From: Candidatus Hydrogenedentota bacterium
GTDB lineage: Bacteria; Hydrogenedentota; Hydrogenedentia; Hydrogenedentales; SLHB01
Direction of reading: 5' to 3'
Assembly (NCBI GenBank): GCA_013359265.1
Contig: JABWCD010000005.1
Coordinates: forward strand, 73,678-137,677
Length of the DNA stretch: 64,000 nucleotides
Shown: positions 24,429 through 48,695 of the stretch, piece after piece
Layout of the letters: the number at the start of each line of letters is the position of its first letter
How positions within the stretch are numbered: position 1 is the stretch's first letter
The notes under the pieces: generated by a model
Told to the model about the DNA's origin: nothing
Database searches by the model: none
What the model saw: the letters and a program-made list of their open reading frames with translations, nothing else
Position numbers and translations under genes: made by a program

Positions 24429-27400
24429 ATGGACCCTTTTATCGAGACCATCACCAGCGACCAGTCCGTCGTGCGCGAACGCGCGTTCCGCGAACTGTGC
24501 GAAGGCAAGAGCGTGGCCGAACTGTTGCAGTCCTGCGCCGAGTTGGAAACGTTCCGCCGAAAGTCCGACAACCTGTACGAGCGCGTACGCGCGACCTTGT
24601 TCCTGTATGCGGCGCACCGGTTCTATCTGTCCGAGGCGCGCGAGTTACCCGAGGCCGGCGCAGTTCCGTTTGCCGCGGTGCGCGATCTGCACGAGCGGCG
24701 CTTCGAGGAAGCGATTGCGCAGTTCCGCGCGGCACAGCAGGCTAGCGGCGCAAACGGCGCGCTGATGAGCGCCTTGGCCGAAGGTTACCACCATCTCGCG
24801 TTCCAGACGCTCGCGGACCAGGTGCGCCGCAGCGTGCGCGGGAGCCGCGGCAACCAATGGATGTTTCGCGTCGGACACGCCGACAACCATCCGGTCCGAA
24901 TTCGGCCCGAACTCTTGCGCCGAAGCGACGGCTCGATCTTGTATCCCGTGCTCACCGAGCGAACGCCGGTACGGCTGGACCTCAGCCATAGCGGCTGGTC
25001 CGACATATTTTTTCTCGGCATGGATTATCCCGAAGGCGCGCGCGTGGTGAACATTAGCGTTGACCTCGGGGTATACGGCCGCGACACGGACGTTCGCCCG
25101 CCGGTCGAAGCGCATGTACGTGTGATACCCGAACCGGTACTGCGAATTTCGAGCATCGATCTCGGTGTGACGAAGGACATCGTGGACCTCGTCGATCTCT
25201 TCAACTTTGGGAATGACTATCTCAGCCTCGTGAAAGCCGGGGTTATCGCGTCCGGGCTGGTGCCGGCTTCTTTCGAAGGCACTCACCATTCCGTTGCCGC
25301 GGTTCTTGCGTCTGTCGTCGGTCCGGGAATGGGGATTGAGCTAGTCACGAAAGTAAACGACATTCCGAAAGGGTCGCGTCTCGCGGTATCTACAAACCTC
25401 CTCGCGAGCATTGTCAGCGTGCTCATGCGCGCGACGGGACAGACCGCGTCGCTCGAGGGCGGGCTGACCGAGAGCGAACGGAGGCTGGTGGCTTCGCGCG
25501 CGATTCTCGGCGAGTGGCTTGGGGGTAGCGGGGGCGGGTGGCAAGACAGCGGCGGTGTGTGGCCGGGTATCAAGGTCATCGAGGGCGCGCCCGCGAAGGA
25601 AGGCGAACCGGAATTCGGCATCAGCCGCGGCTGTCTTTTGCCGCGGCACCATGTGCTGGGCAAAGACGAAGTCCATCCGGAATTCACGGAGCGATTTGCG
25701 CAGTCGCTGGTGTTGCTCCATGGCGGCATGGCGCAGGACGTTGGGCCGATCCTGGAAATGGTCACGGAGAAGTATTTGCTGCGTTCCGCGGACGAATGGC
25801 GCGCCCGGCAACACATGCGCGCAATATTCGACGGCATACTTACGGCGCTGCGGAAAGGCGACGTGAAATCGCTCGCGACGCACACCACACAAAACTTCGA
25901 CGGGCCTTTGAGGACCATAATTCCCTGGGTGACGAACTATTTTACCGAAACGATTATTTCGCACGCGCGGGCCGCGCTTGGGCGGAACTATTGGGGATTC
26001 CAGATGCTCGGCGGCATGTCCGGCGGGGGCATGGCGATGTACGTTGCACCGGAGGCGCACGCGGAATCGCGCGATCGAATTCTCGATATCATGCGCGCGG
26101 CGAAACTTGGCGTCGATGACGCGCTTCCCTTCGCGATGGAGCCGGTCGTGTACGATTTCCGGATCAACGAGCGGGGTACGTGGGCGACACTGCACGCCGG
26201 CGAAGATGCGATGATGCCGTCGCGGTACTATGCGCTCCAGGTACCGGAACTGGTGCGCCATTCGGCCGACGCGTTGCCGTACTTGCGCCGGGCGGAACTC
26301 GATCACTTCACCGCGAGCAGCAAGGAACCGATCGAGACCTTCGGCCTCCTGCGTACAATCGTCAGCAATTTGTTCCGCGTCGCGAACCCGGCATCTCGTT
26401 CAGAGCGTATCGAGTGGGACCGGGAATCCGAGGCGATCAAGGCGCAGAACGGCTTCGACGTCGTGCAGCACGAGCAGATTCGCGCAGACTTGAGGGCAGG
26501 CCGCATCGGGCTCGCGCATAATCGCATGTCGGTGGAGACCGCCATTGACGATGTGCTTGACGCAGACGTCGCCAAGCTCTCTGACCAGACAAAGCACGCT
26601 TCACGCGGCGAGCGCGCACTGCGCGAAGGCCGCGTCGCCGTGCTGTCCCTTGCGGGCGGCGTGGGCAGCCGATGGACCACCGGGGCGGGTGTCATCAAGG
26701 CGTTGAATCCGTTCGTCAGCATTGCCGGGAAACATCGCAGTTTTCTCGAAATTCATTTGTCAAAGTCACGCGCAACCGCGCAGAAATATGGGGCACATCC
26801 GCCTCACATCGTTTCGACCAGTTTTCTCACGCACGCGCCCATCGAGCGCCACCTTGCAGCGTCGCAGCACTTCGGATACGGCGGTCCAGTGCACTTATCG
26901 CCGGGCCGATCGATTAGCCAGCGGCTGGTGCCGATGGTGCGCGACCTCGTTTTCCTCTGGGAAGAGATGCCGCAGGAAACGCTCGACGAGCAGAAGCAAA
27001 AAGTGCGCGAGGCCGTGCACGGAGCGCTGACGCAGTGGGCGCGCGACGCAGGCGAAGGCAGCGACTACGCCGACAACGTGCCCATCCAACGCTTCAATCC
27101 GCCCGGCCACTGGTACGAGGTTCCAAACCTTTTCCGAAACGGCGCGTTGGCGCGGTTGCTGCGCGAGCGTCCAAACGTCGAGACCATCATGCTGCATAAC
27201 ATCGATACGCTTGGCGCCGATTTGGACCCCGCTGCGCTTGGCTGTCACCTCGAATCCGGCAACGTCCTCACGTTCGAGGTGGTGCCGCGGCGCATCGGCG
27301 ACAGCGGCGGCGGTCTTGCGCGGGTGGGTGGGCGCGTGCGCCTGCTCGAAGGCCTCGCCCAACCGCGCGAGGAAGACGAGTACAAACTCCGGTACTACAA

Positions 27401-27764
27401 TTCGATGACAACATGGATTCAAATCGATCCGCTCCTGAATGTGTTCGGCCTGACGCGCGACGACTTAAACGGGCCGGAGGAATTCATCGCCGAGGCCGTG
27501 CGCAGAATGGCGCAGCGTTTGCCCACGTACGTAACCATCAAGGACGTGAAGAAGCGCTGGGGCCACGGACAAGAGGATGTGTACCCCGTGGCCCAGTTTG
27601 AGAAGTTGTGGAGCGATATGAGTGGACTCCCGGATGTCCGCTGCGGATTTCTCGCGGTACCGCGTTTGCGCGGGCAACAACTCAAGGACCCCGCCGAACT
27701 TGACCCGTGGGCGAACGACGGCAGCAAAGACCACGTCGCGTCCCTGTGCGTGTTTGACGCGTGA
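24429..27764 (+). CDS. 1111-aa fusion protein: N-terminal GHMP-kinase-like region plus C-terminal UDP-sugar pyrophosphorylase (UDPGP)-like nucleotidyltransferase
   Basis: Degenerate GHMP motif II (IPKGSRLAVSTNLLASIVSV) and a C-terminal GHMP glycine block (LGGMSGGGMAMYV) in the first ~550 aa. A UDPGP-type motif LSLAGGVGSRWTTGAG lies around residue 700. Confidence 0.5.
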   Translation: MDPFIETITSDQSVVRERAFRELCEGKSVAELLQSCAELETFRRKSDNLYERVRATLFLYAAHRFYLSEARELPEAGAVPFAAVRDLHERRFEEAIAQFRAAQQASGANGALMSALAEGYHHLAFQTLADQVRRSVRGSRGNQWMFRVGHADNHPVRIRPELLRRSDGSILYPVLTERTPVRLDLSHSGWSDIFFLGMDYPEGARVVNISVDLGVYGRDTDVRPPVEAHVRVIPEPVLRISSIDLGVTKDIVDLVDLFNFGNDYLSLVKAGVIASGLVPASFEGTHHSVAAVLASVVGPGMGIELVTKVNDIPKGSRLAVSTNLLASIVSVLMRATGQTASLEGGLTESERRLVASRAILGEWLGGSGGGWQDSGGVWPGIKVIEGAPAKEGEPEFGISRGCLLPRHHVLGKDEVHPEFTERFAQSLVLLHGGMAQDVGPILEMVTEKYLLRSADEWRARQHMRAIFDGILTALRKGDVKSLATHTTQNFDGPLRTIIPWVTNYFTETIISHARAALGRNYWGFQMLGGMSGGGMAMYVAPEAHAESRDRILDIMRAAKLGVDDALPFAMEPVVYDFRINERGTWATLHAGEDAMMPSRYYALQVPELVRHSADALPYLRRAELDHFTASSKEPIETFGLLRTIVSNLFRVANPASRSERIEWDRESEAIKAQNGFDVVQHEQIRADLRAGRIGLAHNRMSVETAIDDVLDADVAKLSDQTKHASRGERALREGRVAVLSLAGGVGSRWTTGAGVIKALNPFVSIAGKHRSFLEIHLSKSRATAQKYGAHPPHIVSTSFLTHAPIERHLAASQHFGYGGPVHLSPGRSISQRLVPMVRDLVFLWEEMPQETLDEQKQKVREAVHGALTQWARDAGEGSDYADNVPIQRFNPPGHWYEVPNLFRNGALARLLRERPNVETIMLHNIDTLGADLDPAALGCHLESGNVLTFEVVPRRIGDSGGGLARVGGRVRLLEGLAQPREEDEYKLRYYNSMTTWIQIDPLLNVFGLTRDDLNGPEEFIAEAVRRMAQRLPTYVTIKDVKKRWGHGQEDVYPVAQFEKLWSDMSGLPDVRCGFLAVPRLRGQQLKDPAELDPWANDGSKDHVASLCVFDA

Positions 27765-39273: not shown

Positions 39274-39314
39274 CGAAAAATGGTCGGGGCGACTGGATTC
39301 GAACCAGCGACCCC
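39274..39314 (-). repeat. Partial 3' fragment of tRNA-Pro (T-arm, acceptor 3' strand and CCA, plus 6 nt of flank): att-like direct repeat marking the distal end of the island
   Basis: A 41-nt block exactly identical to 48611-48651, followed by weaker similarity. No complementary 5' acceptor strand is present, so this is not a functional tRNA. Confidence 0.8.
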
Positions 39315-39485
39315 TGCCCAGGCTGCACGATGTGCGCAGTGCACCGCCATAGAACGTCCTTTCGTTGGCCCGCCTCAATCTTGATCCGCCAGCGCACACC
39401 CTGTTACATATCAGTCTAACGGGTGCATGGCGTGTCGGGCGCAGGCAATGACCGTCCCCCGTTGGGATTCGAGTGGGGAGAATTC

Positions 39486-42400
39486 ATGGCCGAGAAGCCC
39501 AATCCTAGAAGCGAGCCGCGCGGCAAAGACCTGTTCATTGTCGACAACAGCGACACGGACTGGAAGGTCAAGAGCTACCTCCAGGAATGGACAGAGGTCG
39601 CGCATCAGTTCGACATTGCCACGGGATATTTCGAGGTGGGCGCACTGCTTGCGCTGGACGGTCAGTGGCAGAAGCTCGACAAGGTCCGCATTCTCATGGG
39701 CGACGAGGTCAGCCTCCGCACCAAACGTGCTTTCACAAACGGACTCGCCAAGGTCGAAATGGCGCTCGACGCGAGCATCGAAAAGGAAAAAGAAACGAAC
39801 GACTTTCTCCACGGCGTACCGGGGATTGTCGAGGGCATTCGGTCGAACAAAATCGAGTGCCGCGTCTACACGAAAGACAAATTCCACGCCAAGGCCTTTA
39901 TCACCCACGGCAAGCTCGCCGTTGTCGGCTCGACCGCCTTGGTCGGCTCCAGCAACTTCACTTACCCGGGTCTGACGGACAATGTCGAGCTGAACGTCCA
40001 GATTCAGCGCGAGGTCAAGGACCTTCAAGAGTGGTACGAACGCCACTGGAACGAAGCGAAGGACGTTTCGGAAGATGTCCTCCGCGTCATCGAACGCCAC
40101 ACGCGCGAGTTCACGCCCTTCGAGGTATACGTCAAGGCGCTTCAGGAGTTCTTCCGAGGCCACGAACTGACGGCATCGGAATGGGAACTGACCAAATCGC
40201 TGATGTACCCCAAACTGGATCAATACCAGAAAGAGGGCTACCACGCGCTGCTCAAAATCGCCATGCAACACAAGGGCGCTTTTCTCTGCGACGGCGTCGG
40301 TTTGGGCAAGACGTTTATCGGCATGATGCTGATCGAACGCCTCACGATGTTCGACCGCAAACGTGTCGCGCTATTCGTCCCAAAGGCTGCTCGCAAGCCA
40401 GTCTGGGAAGCCGCGCTCAGAAAGTATCTGCCCAATCTCGGCGGGGACTTTACGAACCTTGTGATTTACAACCACACCGACTTGCAGCGGGGCGGCGAAT
40501 ATCAGTCGCGCTTGGCCCGACTGAAAGACATGGCTGACGTGGTGATAATCGACGAAGCGCATCACTTCCGCAATCCCGGCGTAAAGGGCGAAGGCACGAA
40601 GCGGCCCTCACGGTACTGGCACATGTTTGACCTGTGCGAAGGCAAGACGGTGTTCATGCTCACCGCGACGCCCATCAACAACAGTCTACTCGACTTTCAG
40701 CACATGATCGAGCTGTTCAGCCGCCGCGAGTCGGCGTATTTCCAGAACACAGTCGGAATCCATTCCCTCGCTGGCCATTTTCGCAAGCTGGAGAAGGCGC
40801 TGGAACGCGCCGTTGGCATCGGCGTGGAACAGATGGAACTGCCCATCGAAGTGAATCAGGCGGAAGCCGCCGAAGTCATTACCGGCGATCCCCTCCTGAC
40901 AAAGCTGGTCGTGCAGCGCAGCCGCGCCTACGTGCGTAAGAGCCAAGAACAACACGACGGGCGGACAGCCATTTTCCCCGAACGCCAGGCCCCGCAGGTC
41001 GCGGATTACTCGATCAAGAAAACATACGGGCGCTTGTTGAAAATGCTTGAGGACGCATTCAACAAGGAAAAGCCGCTATTCTCGCTCGCCATCTACTACC
41101 CATTGGCCTACTACAAAGGGCCGAACGACGCGATTGACACCAAGCTGGAAAACCGGCAAAAGCAGGTCGTCAGCCTGATCCGCACGCAGTTCCTAAAGCG
41201 ATTCGAAAGCTCGGCGCGCGCGTTCCAAATGTCTTGTCAGGCGCTGATGCTCAAGCTGCTTGCCTTCGCGACAAAGCACAGCACGTCGATCACCGAGAAA
41301 CACCGGCTGGAACGGTGGAAGGGACAACACGAGGACCTCATCGGATACGTCCGCGAGCATCAGCACGAATTCTGGGGCGACGCGGAGGAAGACGACGCGG
41401 ACGCGGACATCATCACCGATGAAATGATGGAAGACATCGACGAACTTCACGAAGACGAGTACAACATCGATGAAATCCTGTCCGAAACTTTCCTCGACCT
41501 CGACCAGGTCGCCGCATTCCTTCAGGAACTACAGAAGTTCAAGCCATCGCACGACGACAAGCTGAAGGCCCTCGTGAAACTGCTGAAATCAGACCCCGTG
41601 CTCAAAGAGCACAAGGTTATTATCTTCTCCGAATACATGGCGACGGCTCGCTATCTCAGGAAGCAACTGGAAGAACAGGGCTTTACCCGCGTCGACGAAG
41701 TGGACTCCGCCAGCAAGAAAGACCGGGGCGTGGTCATCACCCGCTTCGCGCCGTACTACAACGATTCGTCGTCGGGAAAGCTGGCGGAGGAGGGTCACGA
41801 TGAAACGGGCATCCTTATCGCCACGGACGTGCTCTCCGAAGGCCTGAACCTCCAGGACGCGACGCGGCTCATCAATTACGACCTCCACTGGAACCCTGTC
41901 CGCCTCATGCAGCGCATTGGCCGCGTGGACCGCCGCATGAACCCGGATGTCGAGGCCGCGATTCTCAAGGACCATCCGGAACAAGAGAAGATTCGCGGCA
42001 AGGTCGCCTACTGGAACTTCCTGCCCCCGGACGAACTGGACGAACTGCTCCGGCTGTATTCGCTCGTGTCGCACAAGACGCTGAAGATTTCGAAAACGCT
42101 CGGTATCGAAGGCAAAAAGCTGCTCCGGCCCGAAGACGACTACGAGGCCCTGAAAGACTTCAACCACGCCTACGAAGGCACGCCCAGCGGCGACGAGGCA
42201 ATGCACCTCGAATACCAGCGACTATTGAAGGAACACCCCGGTTTGGAGGAACGGCTAAACGCGTTGCCCAAGCGGGTATTCTCCGGGAAGGAACACCCTA
42301 AGCCGGGCACCAAGGCCGTCTTCTTCTGTTTCTCGCTGCCCGCGTTCGATACCAGCGTGAAACTCGAAGAGGGCGATCCGGAAACGAACGCCTGGACAGA

Positions 42401-42647
42401 CGACGCGGGCCTCACGCAGTGGTATCTGTACGATCTGGCGACCGAAAATATTCACACCGACGCTGCCGAAATCTTCACAGTGATCCAGAGCGAACCGGAC
42501 ACGCCACGACACCGATCCGTGACGGACGAGACGCTTTCCGAAATTCGCGCTAAGGTTGAAAGACACGTCAAGAACACATACTTCAAGCAAGTTCAGGCTC
42601 CGGTCGGAGTTCGGGCCACGCTCAAATGCTGGATGGAACTAAGCTAG
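39486..42647 (+). CDS. Fusion protein: N-terminal PLD-family nuclease domain plus SNF2-family (SF2) helicase
   Basis: HxK PLD motif (FHAKAFITHGK...GSSNFT). SNF2 Walker A (LCDGVGLGKTF), DEAH box (VIIDEAHHFRNP), helicase-C (ILIATDVLSEGLNLQDA...QRIGRVDR). GGGGAGA RBS before the ATG at 39486. Confidence 0.8.
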   Translation: MAEKPNPRSEPRGKDLFIVDNSDTDWKVKSYLQEWTEVAHQFDIATGYFEVGALLALDGQWQKLDKVRILMGDEVSLRTKRAFTNGLAKVEMALDASIEKEKETNDFLHGVPGIVEGIRSNKIECRVYTKDKFHAKAFITHGKLAVVGSTALVGSSNFTYPGLTDNVELNVQIQREVKDLQEWYERHWNEAKDVSEDVLRVIERHTREFTPFEVYVKALQEFFRGHELTASEWELTKSLMYPKLDQYQKEGYHALLKIAMQHKGAFLCDGVGLGKTFIGMMLIERLTMFDRKRVALFVPKAARKPVWEAALRKYLPNLGGDFTNLVIYNHTDLQRGGEYQSRLARLKDMADVVIIDEAHHFRNPGVKGEGTKRPSRYWHMFDLCEGKTVFMLTATPINNSLLDFQHMIELFSRRESAYFQNTVGIHSLAGHFRKLEKALERAVGIGVEQMELPIEVNQAEAAEVITGDPLLTKLVVQRSRAYVRKSQEQHDGRTAIFPERQAPQVADYSIKKTYGRLLKMLEDAFNKEKPLFSLAIYYPLAYYKGPNDAIDTKLENRQKQVVSLIRTQFLKRFESSARAFQMSCQALMLKLLAFATKHSTSITEKHRLERWKGQHEDLIGYVREHQHEFWGDAEEDDADADIITDEMMEDIDELHEDEYNIDEILSETFLDLDQVAAFLQELQKFKPSHDDKLKALVKLLKSDPVLKEHKVIIFSEYMATARYLRKQLEEQGFTRVDEVDSASKKDRGVVITRFAPYYNDSSSGKLAEEGHDETGILIATDVLSEGLNLQDATRLINYDLHWNPVRLMQRIGRVDRRMNPDVEAAILKDHPEQEKIRGKVAYWNFLPPDELDELLRLYSLVSHKTLKISKTLGIEGKKLLRPEDDYEALKDFNHAYEGTPSGDEAMHLEYQRLLKEHPGLEERLNALPKRVFSGKEHPKPGTKAVFFCFSLPAFDTSVKLEEGDPETNAWTDDAGLTQWYLYDLATENIHTDAAEIFTVIQSEPDTPRHRSVTDETLSEIRAKVERHVKNTYFKQVQAPVGVRATLKCWMELS

Positions 42648-42671: not shown

Positions 42672-43163
42672 ATGCCGTATCGAATCACTGAGAAACTTCA
42701 GGGGGTGAAGGTTTCGGCGGGTACACTGGCCAACGCCGTGTCAACCATCCAAGGTGCAAAAGGTGGCGTTCCCGTATTCAGCTTTGCCAAGGGTGAGTTC
42801 GAACTTCGGCGACTCGATGTTGCAGTCACCATACCCGCCACCGGTGCATGGCCCGGCCCCGTCCAAGTTCGCGTGGCACAACTGCCACGTTTGAAAAAGT
42901 ACTTGGATTTGAAGTCCCTGGACGCGGAAATCGATATTTTGCCCACGCTAAGAGCGTTGAGGATTGGCGAGATTCAGGTTCCTTGCACGTGGCGCGCTAG
43001 GGCGTATGAAATCTTACGGGGCGCAACTGTAATTACATCGCCGGAACACCGACGCAAGTTCGAAGAGGTGGACAAAATAATTGGGAGCAAGTACGCCGCT
43101 CAAGCGATGAAAGATGCGGTCAACCCAAAAGAAGATGAAGAATGGCGCGAGACACTATTCTAA
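42672..43163 (+). CDS. Hypothetical 163-aa protein, second gene of the island cassette
   Basis: GGGGA RBS; 25 nt downstream of the helicase gene; its 3' end overlaps the methyltransferase start by 22 nt. Confidence 0.5.
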   Translation: MPYRITEKLQGVKVSAGTLANAVSTIQGAKGGVPVFSFAKGEFELRRLDVAVTIPATGAWPGPVQVRVAQLPRLKKYLDLKSLDAEIDILPTLRALRIGEIQVPCTWRARAYEILRGATVITSPEHRRKFEEVDKIIGSKYAAQAMKDAVNPKEDEEWRETLF

Positions 43164-46100
43164 GCATCGTTGATTTCCCTAGCCTTGTTACCTTCCTGGC
43201 CGACGAACTCGATTGGCCAATCGAGGACGACCAGTTTGACGACCTCGATGCGCTGGCATTCGACTACACGCCGGACGAACTCAACTTGCCGGACGAACTC
43301 CATGCCCGCGTGCGCAACGTCAAACAAATGCGCCCGCTCACGACCAACCAGCCGTGGGCGGTGTTCTACGTCGAGTTCGAGTCGAAGCGCCTGCCCCTTA
43401 CCGCGCTCCGCCGCATTCTGAATCGGTTCGTCGAGAAAAAGCGCACGTCCGCCGGTGACCGTGTCACGTGGAAAATGCAAGACCTCCTGTTCGTGAATGC
43501 CCACGGCGACGGCGAAGATCGGGGCATGACCTTTGCCCACTTCTCGAAGCCGGACGCGGGCTACACCGCCGTCATGCGCGAGTTCATGTGGACGCGCAAA
43601 GAAACGCACTTGGCCCATATTCACAATTATATCGAGTGCCTCCACTGGCCGGATGACGGTACGAGCCAGAAAGACTGGCGCGAGCAGTGGCGTTCGGCCT
43701 TTGTCGGCTCGAAGCGAAAAGCCATCCGGGACTCGAAAGAATTGGCCCAGGAAATGGCGCACTTCGCGCGGGACGTGCGCAAGCGCGTCGGTGAAGTGCT
43801 GGACATTACGCGCAAACGGCAGTTTGAGCCATTGCAGCAACTGTACAAGGCATTCAAGACGCTCTTAATCCATGACCTGTCGGAGGACGATTTCGCCGAC
43901 ACCTACGCGCAGACCCTTGCGTATGGACTGTTTGCGGCGCGCGCGGCCCATCCCAACGAATCATTTGACGTGGCCCACGCGCCGGAGCGCATTCCGCCTA
44001 CAAATCCTTTCCTACAGGGCCTATTCGCGCAGTGCTTGGGTCTGACAAAGGTTGGCGGTGGGAAGATCGACATTGAAGAAATCGGCGTGGGCCGATTGGT
44101 TGAACTCTTCGAGGGCCTGCGCCCCGAGGATACGACACGCATTCTCAACGAATTCGGGTCGCAGACCGGCGATCCAGTCATTCACTTCTACGAGGAATTC
44201 CTGACGGAATACGACAAGCGGAAGAAGGTTCAGCGCGGTGTGTTCTACACGCCCAAGCCGGTCGTGTCCTACATCGTGCGCAGCGTACACGAATTGCTTC
44301 AGACCGAGTTTGGGCTTGAGGACGGTCTTGCTTCGACCGATACGTGGGCAGATATGGCCGCACGATTTCCGAAATTAAAGATTCCGGATGAAGTAAACTC
44401 GAAATCCGCTTTCGTACAAATTCTCGATCCCGCTACCGGCACCGCCACCTTCCTCGTGGAGGTTATCGAAGTAATTCATCGCACACTGACCGAGCGGTGG
44501 AAGCGCGAGAAGGTTTCCGCGCAACAGCAGCAGGTCCTGTGGAATCAGTATGTCGTCAAGCACCTTCTTCCGCGACTCCACGGCTACGAACTCATGATGG
44601 CCCCCTACACCATCGCCCACATGAAAATTGGGCTGAAGTTGAGAGAACTGAATTTCACCGCACTCCAATCACTTGGTGCGAATGACCGGGTTCGAGTATA
44701 TCTCACAAATGCGCTAGAAGAACCTGACGATGCAAGCGGTCAAGCGCAAATCGAACAATGCACCCCCGCGCTCGCGCGAGAAGCCACTGAGGTTGGAAAG
44801 ATTAAGCGTGGCACGGTTTTTACAGTTGTAATTGGTAATCCGCCATACTCCGGGATATCGGCCAATCTGTCAACTGCAATGCGCCGCAGTGTCGACCCGT
44901 ACCGTTTTGTGGATGGCGATCCAATTAGGGAAAAAAGTGCGCTCCAATTCGAGAAGAATCTCAACGACGATTATGTGAAGTTTTTTCGTTTTGCCGAGAA
45001 GCAAATAGAGAAACGAGTTGGTCTTATCGGCCTCATCACAAACAATGGCTATCTGGAAAGCGCGACCCTGCGTGGCATGAGGAATCACTTGCTGCAATCG
45101 TTTGGTCGGCGTTGGTTCCTAGATCTGCATGGTGATGCTGACAAGCGAGAGCGTGATGAACTGGACCAGACAGACGAGAATGTCTTTGAGATAAAGCGCG
45201 GGGTTTGCATCGCACTCCTCGTTCGCCGTCCGAAGATCCATCTAGCCGACAACGAGTTGTTCAGACAGGACATACGAGGAAGTTCTGGGCACAAGTATCA
45301 TTGGCTAACCACTAATTCGATTTTGTCCACGCGGTTTTCTGCATTCGCAGCTAGAGAACCAAACTACTATTTCTTTGCGCGCAACGCCGAAACGGAGGCC
45401 GAATATAACCAAGCGATTCCTATGGTCGAACTTTATGGAATAAACTCGACCGGCTTTGAATCTGGACGTGACGAGATCCTTACCGACTTTACTGCAATGG
45501 AACTTCGATCCAAACTTGTGCATTTTGCGACGTCACCAAAGGACGAGATTGTCCAAAGGTACTCTGTTTCCGAAGCGTGGGGAAAGAAACTATTCGATGA
45601 AAGGGCGACCATCGTCGCGGAAAAGGATTTTGCGAGGCATATCACGCCTTTCTTGTTTGGCCCTTTCGACTTGCGATACTGCTTCTACCGAAAAGACCTC
45701 TTGAAGACAAACAGTCACAGCGCGGGGAAACATCTCCTTGCAGGACAAAATGTTGCCCTGATGGTAATGCGGCAAGTCTCCATTGATGGCCCATTTACGC
45801 ATATTGGCGTGTCCAAAGTCATTCCAAACAACCGGTGTTTCTATAGTACCAAAGGGAAAATCTCATATTTTCCGCACGAACTCTTAGCTGGTGATCGAGA
45901 CCTGCCGTATTCGAGAGATCGATTTGTAGGATCTAACTTCAGACCGCAGGCATTGGCGCGAATCAAACGTCTTCTTAAACCCCACCAATCTGAGACCGAA
46001 CTCTCTGATCGAGCAGTGTTCGACTATGCTTACGCGGTGTTTCACAGTCCCGGCTACAGGAGCCGCTACGCGGAGTTTTTGAAGACCGATTTCCCGCGCT

Positions 46101-47158
46101 TGCCGTTAACCGGGAACCTGGAACTGTTCGGCGCGCTGGCCCGGCTCGGCGGCGAACTCGTCGCTCTGCACCTGCTGGAATCGCCCAAGCTCGACAAACC
46201 AATTACCGAATTTATTGGTGGGCGGAATCCCGAGGTCGAAAAGGTCTCGTGGTCGAATAACACCGTGTGGGTGGACAAGGCACAGACCACCGGCTTCCAG
46301 GGCGTGCGCGAGGACGTGTGGAACTTCCATGTCGGCGGCTATCAGGTCTGTGAGAAATGGCTCAAAGACCGCAGAGGCCGCACGCTGTCGGACGACGACA
46401 TCGCGCACTACCACAAAATCGTCGTCGCGCTCACCGAGACCATCCGGATCATGAAGGAAATCGATGAGGTCATCGACCAACACGGCGGCTGGCCCGGCGC
46501 TTTCTTGACGGGCAATTCCGCGGCGACGGTCCCCCCGGAAGCATCCGAGACAGTAGATCTCACATCAGCAAATAACGAACCAGAGTCACCCTGCGCCGCC
46601 GCCGATGAACCTGATCTGTTTTCATCCGTCGAGTCAGTCGGCTCCGACGAACTGGAGGGCGCCGCCGAGGAGTTGCCGGAAGTGCAGGACGAGGACGATG
46701 CGCCAAGTTATCGTCCGATCAGCGAGGTGCCGCGCGAGGAAGTGCTGTGCGCGGTGCGTAAGATACTCACCGCCGAATCGCCCTTGGACCGGGACGACCT
46801 GCTGAAACGCCTAGCCGAAGAGTTCGGTTATCAGCGGCTCGGCCCGAAGGCGCGCGACTTGCTCGAAGACGATCTGAAGACGGCAGTGCGCCGTGGCATC
46901 GCCAAGCGTAACAGCAACGAATACTCGCTGATCGCGCGCGGCATCAACGGCTACAACCGCAACTGGCTCAAAGACTGTTTCGTCAGCGCAACGGGCCGCA
47001 CGTGGATTTCCCGCGAGGACGCCATCCGCCAGTTTGCGCGGCACCTCGGATTCGCCCGCACCGGCAGCGCTATCGAGGACATGGCCCGCTCCCTCATTAA
47101 AGGCCTCCTCCGCGAGGGGCGGCTCGAATCCGACGGCCCGAATATTCGACGGGTGTAG
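43142..47158 (+). CDS. Giant (1338 aa) gamma-class N6-adenine DNA methyltransferase, type IIG/ISP- or BREX-PglX-like, with acidic linker and extra C-terminal domain
   Basis: Motif order FYTP (X), then ILDPATGTATFL (I), then VIGNPPYSG (IV). Long central/TRD-like region, an acidic linker ELEGAAEELPEVQDEDD, and a ~150-aa C-terminal domain. Confidence 0.75.
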   Translation: MARDTILSIVDFPSLVTFLADELDWPIEDDQFDDLDALAFDYTPDELNLPDELHARVRNVKQMRPLTTNQPWAVFYVEFESKRLPLTALRRILNRFVEKKRTSAGDRVTWKMQDLLFVNAHGDGEDRGMTFAHFSKPDAGYTAVMREFMWTRKETHLAHIHNYIECLHWPDDGTSQKDWREQWRSAFVGSKRKAIRDSKELAQEMAHFARDVRKRVGEVLDITRKRQFEPLQQLYKAFKTLLIHDLSEDDFADTYAQTLAYGLFAARAAHPNESFDVAHAPERIPPTNPFLQGLFAQCLGLTKVGGGKIDIEEIGVGRLVELFEGLRPEDTTRILNEFGSQTGDPVIHFYEEFLTEYDKRKKVQRGVFYTPKPVVSYIVRSVHELLQTEFGLEDGLASTDTWADMAARFPKLKIPDEVNSKSAFVQILDPATGTATFLVEVIEVIHRTLTERWKREKVSAQQQQVLWNQYVVKHLLPRLHGYELMMAPYTIAHMKIGLKLRELNFTALQSLGANDRVRVYLTNALEEPDDASGQAQIEQCTPALAREATEVGKIKRGTVFTVVIGNPPYSGISANLSTAMRRSVDPYRFVDGDPIREKSALQFEKNLNDDYVKFFRFAEKQIEKRVGLIGLITNNGYLESATLRGMRNHLLQSFGRRWFLDLHGDADKRERDELDQTDENVFEIKRGVCIALLVRRPKIHLADNELFRQDIRGSSGHKYHWLTTNSILSTRFSAFAAREPNYYFFARNAETEAEYNQAIPMVELYGINSTGFESGRDEILTDFTAMELRSKLVHFATSPKDEIVQRYSVSEAWGKKLFDERATIVAEKDFARHITPFLFGPFDLRYCFYRKDLLKTNSHSAGKHLLAGQNVALMVMRQVSIDGPFTHIGVSKVIPNNRCFYSTKGKISYFPHELLAGDRDLPYSRDRFVGSNFRPQALARIKRLLKPHQSETELSDRAVFDYAYAVFHSPGYRSRYAEFLKTDFPRLPLTGNLELFGALARLGGELVALHLLESPKLDKPITEFIGGRNPEVEKVSWSNNTVWVDKAQTTGFQGVREDVWNFHVGGYQVCEKWLKDRRGRTLSDDDIAHYHKIVVALTETIRIMKEIDEVIDQHGGWPGAFLTGNSAATVPPEASETVDLTSANNEPESPCAAADEPDLFSSVESVGSDELEGAAEELPEVQDEDDAPSYRPISEVPREEVLCAVRKILTAESPLDRDDLLKRLAEEFGYQRLGPKARDLLEDDLKTAVRRGIAKRNSNEYSLIARGINGYNRNWLKDCFVSATGRTWISREDAIRQFARHLGFARTGSAIEDMARSLIKGLLREGRLESDGPNIRRV

Positions 47159-47207
47159 AACATTGACGAGCAATGATCAGCACCAATCCAACTACGAGGT
47201 TTAACGA

Positions 47208-48317
47208 ATGCCATACAGGCCAAAGGAAGAATTTGTCCAAATGGCTAAGCAGGTGGTGGTAACGGGAAGGCCGCTCACTATTTCCGTGCGACAGTTGTTG
47301 GAGTTCTTTTGGCAGGAAAGGCGCGGCAAATACGTTACTCGGTACATTCGGAGCAAACTAACGAGTCTGGGGGTCGAGACGGATCCTCCATTTGAAGATG
47401 AACATATTGACGGTATAATCAAACTCTTTCCGCGGGAAAAGCGGGGCCCGGGCCGACCACCAAAAGCTGGTAAGAAAACGCCCGGTGCCGTTGCTGTGGT
47501 ACCACCTGCCCTTGTCGTAAACGATACGGAGTCGAGCCCCGTTATCGAGGAAAATATCCCGGTCGAAGATTCGGTTGAAGATGAGCGCCGCTCGTACTTG
47601 CCCATTTCGCTATTGAGCGCAGCAAACCGAAAGCCTGTGAGTGTGCGTCCAGGCGATGAGATTGAAACGGTCGTGTTCCAATTAATGTCCGAAGGACTCG
47701 CTCATTTGCCCGTGTTACGGGATTCTAGAAGTCCTGAGGGAATCATCACTTGGCAATCATTGGGCAAGGCAAACGCGGGTGGCGATCCTCCGAAGACCGC
47801 AAGAGAGTGTTTGGATGTCGACGTCCGTGTTGTCGGCTTGGATACGCCGCTGTTCGATGCTGTTAGGGACATCATCAAAAGCGGCGTAGTATTGGTGCGG
47901 AACAAGAGCAATGAGATATGCGGCATGCTCACGGCGCAGGACATCGCGGAGCAGTTCGTTGCGCTCTCTGAACCTTTTTTGTTTCTCGAACAGATCGAGA
48001 ACCATCTTCGTAATTTGTTGATTCGTGCCAAGCTCTCGCAACAAGAACTGAATTCTTTTATTGATCCGGCCGACAAAAGAAGAACTCAAGGAAAAATAAC
48101 CGTAGATGACCTGACCTTTGGCGAGTATTTGCGGGCGATGTCGAAGGAAGAGGTTTGGTCGCGACTAGCACTTAGAATTAATCGGAAGCTGTTCATCGAT
48201 CGGATGGATAAAGTGCGCGAGATCCGAAATAGCGTAATGCATTTTCATCCGGATGGAATTTCAGATGGCGATCGTGAACTGCTCGCCAAAACGCGTGAAA
48301 TGCTACAAGGTCTGTAA
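47208..48317 (+). CDS. CBS-pair / HEPN-domain protein with AT-hook (putative nucleotide-sensing RNase effector)
   Basis: AT-hook KRGPGRPPKAGKK; two CBS-like segments (ETVVFQLMSEGLAHLPVL; LFDAVRDIIKSGVVLVRN); C-terminal HEPN Rx4H motif REIRNSVMHFH. Confidence 0.6.
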   Translation: MPYRPKEEFVQMAKQVVVTGRPLTISVRQLLEFFWQERRGKYVTRYIRSKLTSLGVETDPPFEDEHIDGIIKLFPREKRGPGRPPKAGKKTPGAVAVVPPALVVNDTESSPVIEENIPVEDSVEDERRSYLPISLLSAANRKPVSVRPGDEIETVVFQLMSEGLAHLPVLRDSRSPEGIITWQSLGKANAGGDPPKTARECLDVDVRVVGLDTPLFDAVRDIIKSGVVLVRNKSNEICGMLTAQDIAEQFVALSEPFLFLEQIENHLRNLLIRAKLSQQELNSFIDPADKRRTQGKITVDDLTFGEYLRAMSKEEVWSRLALRINRKLFIDRMDKVREIRNSVMHFHPDGISDGDRELLAKTREMLQGL

Positions 48318-48529
48318 CAGAAATGCCATAGGATATAGGATTCTTGCGAATCTCACGGCATGGAGCCCAATTTAGTCCTACGGCAAGATTCATCGTATCA
48401 CAGAAAATGCGAATTGATAACACGAATGCGCCGTGATGCACACGAATGGGCGCCAGGCCAGCGGGTTTGGGACGCGCCGTAAACGGCTAACCGACAAGAG
48501 CCTGTAAATGTTGGGAGAGGGCTGCGTAT

Positions 48530-48616
48530 GCCATGCAAGTCGAAAGCGGAATTTGTGGCACTTGCGAAGCAGCAAGTTCGAAAAACCGGACGTCGTGCAT
48601 GGGCAAGAGTGAAAAA
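48530..48616 (+). pseudogene. Remnant N-terminus of a paralog of the CBS/HEPN gene, running into the tRNA-Pro 3' end
   Basis: MPCKSKAEFVALAKQQVRKTGR aligns with MPYRPKEEFVQMAKQVVVTGR of the 47208 gene (12/22 identical). The reading frame continues into tRNA sequence. Confidence 0.5.
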
Positions 48617-48695
48617 TGGTCGGGGCGACTGGATTCGAACCAGCGACCCCTTGCCCCCCAGGCAAGTGCGCTAAACCGGGCTGCGCTACGCCCCG
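48617..48695 (-). tRNA. tRNA-Pro (anticodon GGG), CCA encoded
   Basis: Manual fold: acceptor CGGGGCG/CGCCCCG, D-arm GCGC..GCGC, anticodon stem CTTGC/GCAAG with loop CTGGGGG (anticodon GGG, G37), T-arm GCTGG-TTCGAAT-CCAGT, discriminator A, CCA. Confidence 0.8.

Follow-up and report, generated by a model that had tools for sequence, protein, structure and literature searches.

A distant DS-11-type CBS-HEPN protein with a clade-specific AT-hook-like motif, carried with a split ISP-like restriction-modification module on a tRNA-Pro island of a Hydrogenedentota bacterium

What is the role of a bacterial protein that joins a CBS pair to a HEPN-type Rx4H motif, and does it act by itself or together with the genes beside it? 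This question is raised by a 64,000-nt stretch of DNA from a Candidatus Hydrogenedentota bacterium (contig JABWCD010000005.1; hereafter, the window), in which a preliminary description made from the letters alone had pointed to a candidate ligand-gated RNase effector carrying an AT-hook. The open reading frame is present as first described, at 47208..48317 on the + strand, and encodes 369 aa. An SD-like GAGG lies 9 nt 5' of the ATG. In the NCBI annotation of an identical protein from a Candidatus Hydrogenedentes MAG (P0001), the start is placed at Met12; we take Met1 to be the likely start because the homologs align from residue 1. Based on the ORF, NCBIfam, BLASTP and an AF2 monomer model of the full length (mean pLDDT 88.8, pTM 0.72), the protein consists of four parts: an N-terminal domain, a linker with an AT-hook-like motif, a CBS pair and a HEPN domain.

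The protein matches NF053863.1, the curated NCBIfam equivalog model "DS11_antiphage, CBS domain-containing anti-phage protein", with E=1.8e-87 and 293.3 bits (cutoff 260), and its aa 28-366 cover profile positions 1-305 of 305. E. coli DS-11 (WP_000257686.1, 365 aa, taken from the DefensePredictor supplement, PMC13092281) reaches 404.9 bits on the same model. BLASTP aligned the two proteins collinearly, aa 25-359 of the window protein with aa 25-349 of E. coli DS-11, with 35% identity and 52% positives over 338 aa (E=6e-58). The order of the parts (N-terminal domain, variable linker, CBS pair and Swt1-like HEPN domain) is the same in both, and the catalytic Arg and His are equivalent. By sequence comparison, the window protein truly belongs to DS-11 and is an ortholog of the E. 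coli protein, although a distant one given its far lower score on the family model (293 vs 405 bits). PADLOC 2023 held no model for the DS-11-like protein.

DS-11 was recently described and validated in the DefensePredictor study (Science 2026, PMC13092281). According to the passages of that paper that concern it, DS-11 is a single-protein anti-phage system; the E. coli gene defends as one cloned gene, and its defence is abolished by HEPN catalytic mutants and by the CBS substitution Y157A (R330A, H335A and Y157A appear in the strain table). HHpred, as run by the authors, assigned HEPN_Swt1 to the E. coli protein at a probability of 0.98. An AF3 dimer was modelled with two ATP (ipTM 0.59), and the authors concluded that the HEPN nuclease is under the control of the CBS domain through the binding of an adenine derivative. 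The experimental validation described there is limited to E. coli, so that it is only for the E. coli ortholog that anti-phage activity, and the need for the HEPN Arg/His and the CBS Tyr, have been shown. The earlier proposal of a ligand-gated CBS-HEPN RNase effector is thus largely, though not in every part, backed by DS-11 membership and by what the E. coli ortholog needs for defence, but the system had already been described; the idea is published and experimentally supported, and its basic picture is unchanged here. What we add is modest, namely a clade-specific AT-hook, the N-terminal domain, a recurrent pairing with restriction-modification (R-M) genes and the packaging on a minimal tRNA-Pro island.

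The Swt1/Abi2-like HEPN domain spans aa 243-369 (47934..48314, +). The near-C-terminal REIRNSVMHFH, in which an Rx4H motif had been noticed beforehand, occupies aa 337-347; the motif itself is R340-N-S-V-M-H345 (48225..48242, +), and R340 and H345 are aligned by BLASTP with R330 and H335 of E. coli DS-11. Conservation was counted throughout in an alignment of 76 sequences (A1). R340, N341, H345, F346, D349, E264, R268, R309 and W317 are invariant in all 76 homologs, so that the Arg and His of the Rx4H noticed beforehand are conserved in the orthologs, and I339, V343 and M344 are kept in 73-75 of the 76. The resulting family signature is I-R-N-x-V-M-H-F-[HD]-P-D-G. In the AF2 model, aa 243-369 are all-helical, helix 326-344 carries the Rx4H at its end, and the predicted fold around it is an all-alpha up-down bundle similar to solved HEPN domains. 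The HEPN-type structures named for the window protein are an AMPylated HEPN toxin, HI0074, the NRD-HEPN of RnlA, TT1696, AbiA, T. thermophilus Csm6, sacsin HEPN, HEPN-MNT toxins and MtlR. Profile searches agreed with the initial assignment for the CBS domains, which Pfam recognised twice, but gave no Pfam HEPN match at E<=1 in the window protein. HEPN_Swt1 was matched by 27 of the 76 homologs (best E=1.1e-4), and PDB sequences searched with a profile of the C-terminal domain gave no hit. We infer that the protein is an RNase, as its catalytic-type residues predict.

CBS-HEPN fusions were reported by Anantharaman et al. (2013), for example, alr3009 and Pelobacter propionicus gi 118580987, and assigned to the Swt1/Abi2 HEPN clade. 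Like the window protein, these proteins combine CBS domains with an active Rx4H HEPN domain of the Abi2/Swt1 group, and they were predicted to be nucleotide sensors that regulate RNA cleavage. In contrast to the window protein, some of them carry an extra HD phosphohydrolase and were read as signalling or RNA-stability proteins. The window protein also differs from the AbiF/Abi2-type HEPN proteins of abortive infection (PDB 8vz6) and from the ligand-gated CARF-HEPN RNases Csm6 and Csx1, since its sensor is a CBS pair instead of a CARF domain or an ncRNA, its locus has no associated cyclase or CRISPR system, and the sequence identity is only 10-14%.

The two CBS-like segments described earlier in the middle of the protein are recovered by Pfam as two matches to PF00571 (E=2.9e-12). 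They form a CBS pair at aa ~131-242 (47598..47933, +) with the motifs G178-h-h-S/T-W and G239-h-h-T242-x-x-D245, an assignment to which Foldseek and column conservation also contribute. Foldseek with the whole AF2 model returned only CBS pairs, many of them solved with SAM/MTA, AMP, ATP or c-di-AMP, and the top ones had E values of about 1e-7 and TM scores of 0.7-0.8 (normalised to the target). G239, T242 and D245 of the second motif are conserved in 75, 67 and 73 of the 76 homologs, respectively, and the motif matches the G-h-h-S/T-x-x-D ribose-binding signature of CBS domains. In the predicted structure, the two tandem motifs fold into one module with a putative nucleotide cleft. Opposite the adenine-contacting Y157 of E. 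coli DS-11, which is needed for defence, the window protein differs in having Leu164. This column is hydrophobic across the 76-sequence alignment, and Tyr is not conserved in it (F22, V13, I12, T10, Y10, L6). Such variation at a position essential in E. coli should help to establish what the CBS pair recognises.

Taken together, the best explanation, and one that we hold to be likely, is that the window protein is a DS-11-type single-polypeptide anti-phage RNase in which a CBS pair gates a dimeric HEPN nuclease. We propose a putative mechanism as follows. The protein would dimerise, and the CBS pair would bind an adenine-containing ligand that changes in level or in identity during infection. 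The binding of this ligand would reposition the two C-terminal HEPN domains, and R340, N341 and H345 would then form a composite, metal-independent RNase site. RNA cleavage at the composite site would halt phage propagation. The N-terminal domain of ~75 aa and the clade-specific AT-hook would probably add nucleic-acid (DNA minor-groove) binding, and an R-M module that was acquired together with the gene and is probably co-transcribed with it would place a DNA-level layer of defence beside the RNA-level one.

The N-terminal domain (aa 1-75; 47208..47432, +) is modelled with pLDDT 87-98 as an alpha/beta fold of the topology H-S-H-H-S-S, with the elements H7-19, E23-26, H27-32, H41-53, E56-59 and E70-75. 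Residues 1-75 are conserved family-wide, E. coli DS-11 included; R39 is invariant, and R28, R38, P60, F62 and D68 are each kept in at least 90% of the family alignment. With haloarchaeal plasmid homologs, the alignment does not start before aa 137. The domain had no Pfam match and no match among PDB sequences. A GntR-type winged helix takes its place in three homologs (P0013-15), and hhalign showed no similarity of the domain to this GntR winged helix (probability 0.3%). We therefore call the domain winged-helix-like in its predicted topology only; it is uncharacterised and possibly binds nucleic acid. The DS-11 passage of PMC13092281 makes no mention of it, and the passages of that paper that concern DS-11 contain no discussion of a clade-specific AT-hook or of a repeated pairing with type IIG/ISP-like R-M genes.

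The replacement of the N-terminal domain by a GntR-type winged helix would be consistent with a different role, that of a nucleotide-responsive transcriptional or RNA-stability regulator, either a housekeeping one or a controller of the R-M operon. As such, the N-terminal domain and the AT-hook would bind an operator, and the HEPN domain would serve RNA binding or turnover. Many homologs are labelled "predicted transcriptional regulator" by JGI, and a ligand-responsive control of RNA stability was suggested for CBS-HEPN proteins by Anantharaman et al. (2013). However, no similarity to known HTH families was detected for the N-terminal domain, and the catalytic-type R-N-x3-H, invariant in 76/76 homologs, argues for an active nuclease. 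Additionally, the distribution of the family is patchy and island-borne with signatures of horizontal transfer, unlike that of a housekeeping regulator. We consider a regulatory role highly improbable and retain the anti-phage RNase as the preferred reading.

Between the N-terminal domain and the CBS pair lies a linker of aa about 76-130 that is first basic and then acidic and is predicted to be disordered (pLDDT 44-60, AF2). Linker length ranges between 32 and 101 aa across the family, and the same succession of charge is typical. In the window protein, it contains the AT-hook-like motif KRGPGRPPKAGKK (aa 78-90; 47439..47477, +), with a G82-R83-P84 core flanked by K78, R79, K86, K89 and K90. 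A basic-flanked GRP at aa about 81-85 was found only in the window's clade (P0001-P0006, P0008-P0011 and P0029; loci L001-L005), and "PR.KR..GRP" is the sole conserved stretch of the 55-aa linker among the 11 sequences of this clade. As nothing else in the clade's linker is conserved, this speaks for selection on the motif. Several clade relatives have an essentially canonical hook, such as KRPRGRPRK or KRPRGRPPK, nearly identical to the hooks of HMGA. P0002, P0006 and P0009 read P-R-G-R-P, whereas the window protein has a degenerate P-G-R-P in place of the full R-G-R-P core. Motifs were scored by two rules, a strict one applied first and a relaxed one applied second. The strict rule excluded the window protein owing to Glu77 in its flank and accepted 7 relatives. 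Under the relaxed rule, the window protein passed, there was no hit among 390 neighbour proteins totalling 130,592 aa, and the rate for shuffles of the protein was 0.6%. By these counts, and by the invariance of R340, N341 and H345, both the hook-like motif and the Rx4H stand above chance. The Pfam AT_hook model did not match the window protein and was matched weakly by 2 of the 76 homologs.

The AT-hook of the preliminary description therefore stands as a clade-conserved motif, but with a degenerate core and without passing the strict rule; as far as the sequences go, it is real and confined to the small clade of the window. It shares the GRP core, the Lys/Arg flanks and the disordered setting with HMGA-type hooks (PF02178) and with xenogeneic silencer motifs. 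It differs from the HMGA type in its P-G-R-P core and in being a single hook with no tandem array, and its DNA binding is putative. The epithet "eukaryote-style" was an overstatement, as AT-hook-like minor-groove motifs are established in the bacterial xenogeneic silencers H-NS, Lsr2 and MvaT (for example, PMC8476142 and PMC4466236). E. coli DS-11 has a shorter linker that lacks the motif. In the window's lineage, the N-terminal domain and the AT-hook probably bind DNA, with the minor groove as the site.

The gene lies on an island bounded by perfect 41-nt direct repeats. The left repeat (39275..39315) is a copy of the 3' end of tRNA-Pro, and the right one (48611..48651) overlaps the 3' 35 nt of tRNA-Pro(GGG) itself (48617..48695, -; ARAGORN), the integration target of the island. 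Four ORFs fill the 9.3 kb between the repeats. The DS-11-like gene is the last before the right repeat, in agreement with its earlier placement as the last gene of a cassette. An integrase was sought inside the island and none was found, nor is there room for one between the four ORFs. Just outside lie housekeeping genes, for an enoyl-CoA hydratase, a HAD hydrolase and a PP2C phosphatase. The GC content is 48-52% in the DS-11-like gene and 47-51% in the specificity region of the methyltransferase, compared with 60-63% in the flanks.

The first ORF (39423..42647, +) encodes a 1074-aa fusion of a PLD (HKD) nuclease with an SNF2/ResIII helicase (Pfam PLDc_2, ResIII, SNF2-rel_dom and Helicase_C; PADLOC "HKD+Snf2", 4.3e-56). 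The third (43142..47158, +) encodes a 1338-aa type IIG/ISP-like N6-adenine methyltransferase with a specificity domain and a C-terminal DUF3320 (PADLOC REase_MTase_IIG, 1.2e-186). In its Eco57I, N6_Mtase and Type_ISP_C matches (E=3.2e-65 for the last) and in the helicase-nuclease alongside, this pair resembles the type ISP enzymes LlaGI and LlaBIII and the type IIG enzymes. In contrast to the single polypeptide of LlaGI and LlaBIII, however, the functions are split over 39423-42647 and 43142-47158, and the nuclease is of the PLD/HKD type and not of the Mrr type. Neither protein reached the cutoff of any NCBIfam equivalog. From their domain content, the two genes are best classified as a split ISP-like R-M module and not as a true type ISP enzyme.

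The second ORF (42672..43163, +), putative and recognised as an ORF only, lies between the helicase and the methyltransferase and would encode 163 aa. It had no match in Pfam, PADLOC or NCBIfam and none by tblastn in 80 related loci, and it was rejected as a conserved fourth component for want of a homolog in those loci. This bears on whether the DS-11-like gene, instead of sensing phage, could work like the toxin of an addiction module and so stabilise the island, with post-segregational killing by a HEPN RNase that normal nucleotide levels restrain. The island has no antitoxin-like partner, its sole small ORF is the one that is not conserved in related loci, and the DS-11 passages of PMC13092281 give the ortholog a defence phenotype. 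An addiction role therefore appears quite improbable.

The stop codon of the methyltransferase gene lies 49 nt upstream of the start of the DS-11-like gene on the same strand. A promoter and terminator scan around the DS-11-like gene gave nothing above shuffle expectation, and no terminator was predicted after the methyltransferase gene. As part of the best explanation, we think that the island genes were acquired together and that the DS-11-like gene is probably co-transcribed with the R-M module. The resulting operon-like array differs from the setting of E. coli DS-11, whose gene is solitary, near a tRNA-Ile and an integrase fragment.

Does such an arrangement recur? Context was counted in the 80 fetched loci. 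By iterated HMM search, about 18-20 of the 80, roughly a quarter, have a large N6-methyltransferase (type IIG/ISP-like) near the gene, usually but not always accompanied by an SNF2 helicase, and in 14 of these linked loci the methyltransferase is directly upstream on the same strand. The gap is at most 40 nt in 9 linked loci, with 5-38 nt or an overlap in L002, L008, L012, L018, L020, L048, L064 and L079. Orthologs of the helicase (50-62% identity) adjoin DS-11-like genes in 10 of the 80 loci, and the methyltransferase orthologs share 35-44% identity. The order helicase, methyltransferase, DS-11 was found in L004, L005, L008, L018, L020 and L068 and in part in others. Some linked loci have an intervening gene, for a TIR protein (L004 and L005) or an Mrr_N protein (L003). 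In a neighbour-joining tree, the R-M-linked loci are dispersed over many subclades.

This recurrence invites the view that the window protein is a non-autonomous accessory effector, a second line behind the adjacent R-M module, with an N-terminal domain and an AT-hook that would tether it either to DNA or to the translocating helicase/methyltransferase complex. Its trigger would be failed or overwhelmed restriction, for example, through nucleotides from DNA degradation or the consumption of ATP. The close spacing on one strand with no predicted terminator, the acquisition of the trio as one island and the spread of the pairing over many subclades all point in this direction, and Anantharaman et al. 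(2013) proposed that HEPN domains in R-M operons form a second line of defence. On the other hand, E. coli DS-11 gives defence when cloned by itself (DS-11 passages of PMC13092281) and stands alone in its genome, and about three quarters of the 80 loci lack an R-M neighbour. No such neighbour lies on the 7.2-kb contig of the closest relative, L001. Moreover, the partner methyltransferases belong to different subfamilies, some being of the MmeI/Eco57I type and not of the ISP type, which generic clustering explains equally well. The linkage recurs without being obligatory; specific coupling could account for it, and so could ordinary defence-island clustering. We regard the accessory role as possible but rather doubtful, and we continue to favour the autonomous anti-phage RNase.

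We speculate, while thinking it unlikely, that the Hydrogenedentes/Verrucomicrobia clade has turned DS-11 into a DNA-tethered RNase, in which CBS-gated HEPN activation would be coupled to restriction in space or function. If so, the N-terminal domain and the AT-hook would anchor the protein to AT-rich (foreign) DNA or, alternatively, to the DNA along which the adjacent split ISP-like helicase/methyltransferase moves, and the whole would be an integrated two-layer DNA/RNA defence unit, mobile as a minimal integrase-less tRNA island. The N-terminal domain, the AT-hook and the R-M pairing provide concrete, testable leads on how DS-11 senses infection.

Beyond the window, a pattern scan found relatives in at least 367 of 185,579 species-level genomes, from many bacterial phyla and one archaeon; the DS-11 family thus reaches deep into uncultured phyla with its catalytic R-N-x3-H intact. 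At E<=1e-5, a collection of 5.8 billion proteins yielded 272 relatives, of which almost all are metagenomic. A phage-borne reading of the gene was rejected, as none of 50,697 phage records was matched by tblastn. The remaining neighbours in the 80 loci are diverse, many of them housekeeping genes and some of them defence genes (TIR/ThsB, GmrSD, DrmMI, mad2 and HEC-05), and homologs are carried on 7 plasmid or chromid records.

A perfect 41-nt direct repeat, a copy of the 3′ end of a tRNA-Pro gene (48617-48695, minus strand), occurs at 39275-39315 and 48611-48651. The 9.3-kb island bounded by this pair contains only the PLD-SNF2 helicase gene, an ORF of 163 aa, the type IIG/ISP-like methyltransferase gene and the DS-11-like gene. 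The island has no integrase and is therefore a minimal defence islet, which may have decayed or been mobilised in trans. The GC content is 47-52% in the specificity region of the methyltransferase (44500-46000) and in the DS-11-like gene (47200-48400), compared with 60-63% in the flanking genome, and the nuclease-helicase gene lies between these values at approximately 57%. This mosaic composition suggests that modules have been shuffled inside the island.

The 163-aa ORF (42672-43163, plus strand) is located between the helicase and methyltransferase genes, and its 3′ end shares 22 nt with the start of the latter. It has no family match and no homolog in any of the 80 related loci, and in orthologous loci the spacing between the helicase and the methyltransferase varies between about 30 nt and 1.5 kb. 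This ORF may be a spurious call or an insert specific to the lineage. Elsewhere in the window, a 1111-aa ORF (24429-27764, plus strand) has a single Pfam match, to part of a UTP-glucose-1-phosphate uridylyltransferase domain close to its C-terminus, and the following 579-aa ORF has no Pfam match; neither is connected to the DS-11-like finding.

At its C-terminus (aa ~1130-1338), the methyltransferase (43142-47158) has a low-complexity acidic stretch and then DUF3320, which has been described as a winged helix (Anantharaman 2013). In two related loci (L041 and L054), the protein directly upstream of the DS-11-like gene matches the methyltransferase in this DUF3320-bearing tail only. In two loci from Verrucomicrobia, the ISP-like methyltransferase and the DS-11-like gene are separated by a TIR-domain protein of 329 aa (L004, 8967-9953; L005, 8965-9951), and an Mrr_N-domain protein occupies this place in L003.

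For the identical MAG protein, the publicly annotated start is Met12 (47241; 358 aa). We favour Met1 (47208; 369 aa) on the basis of an SD-like GAGG and the N-termini of homologs. Three homologs (P0013, P0014 and P0015) carry a GntR/MarR-type winged helix instead of the usual N-terminal domain of the DS-11 family, and a fourth (P0067) carries an unrelated region of ~130 aa. Since the CBS-HEPN body of these four proteins is still 45-60% identical to the window protein, the N-terminal module of the family is swappable. Archaeal relatives include plasmid matches from Haloarcula and Halobaculum (H5-H7) and one locus from a Halobacteriota MAG (L062). The alignment of the haloarchaeal plasmid copies to the window protein begins only at aa 137, covering CBS and HEPN, and these copies thus apparently lack the N-terminal domain and the linker.

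On the chromosome of E. coli KE47 (NZ_CP141089.1, 3333490-3334587), the validated DS-11 gene has no R-M genes around it. It is situated in a variable region, with a tRNA-Ile gene ~11 kb away, and adjoins a tyrosine-recombinase fragment of 200 aa and the remnant of an IS3 element. NZ_CP141089.1 is a 4.9-Mb chromosome, yet it is also entered in the plasmid collection.
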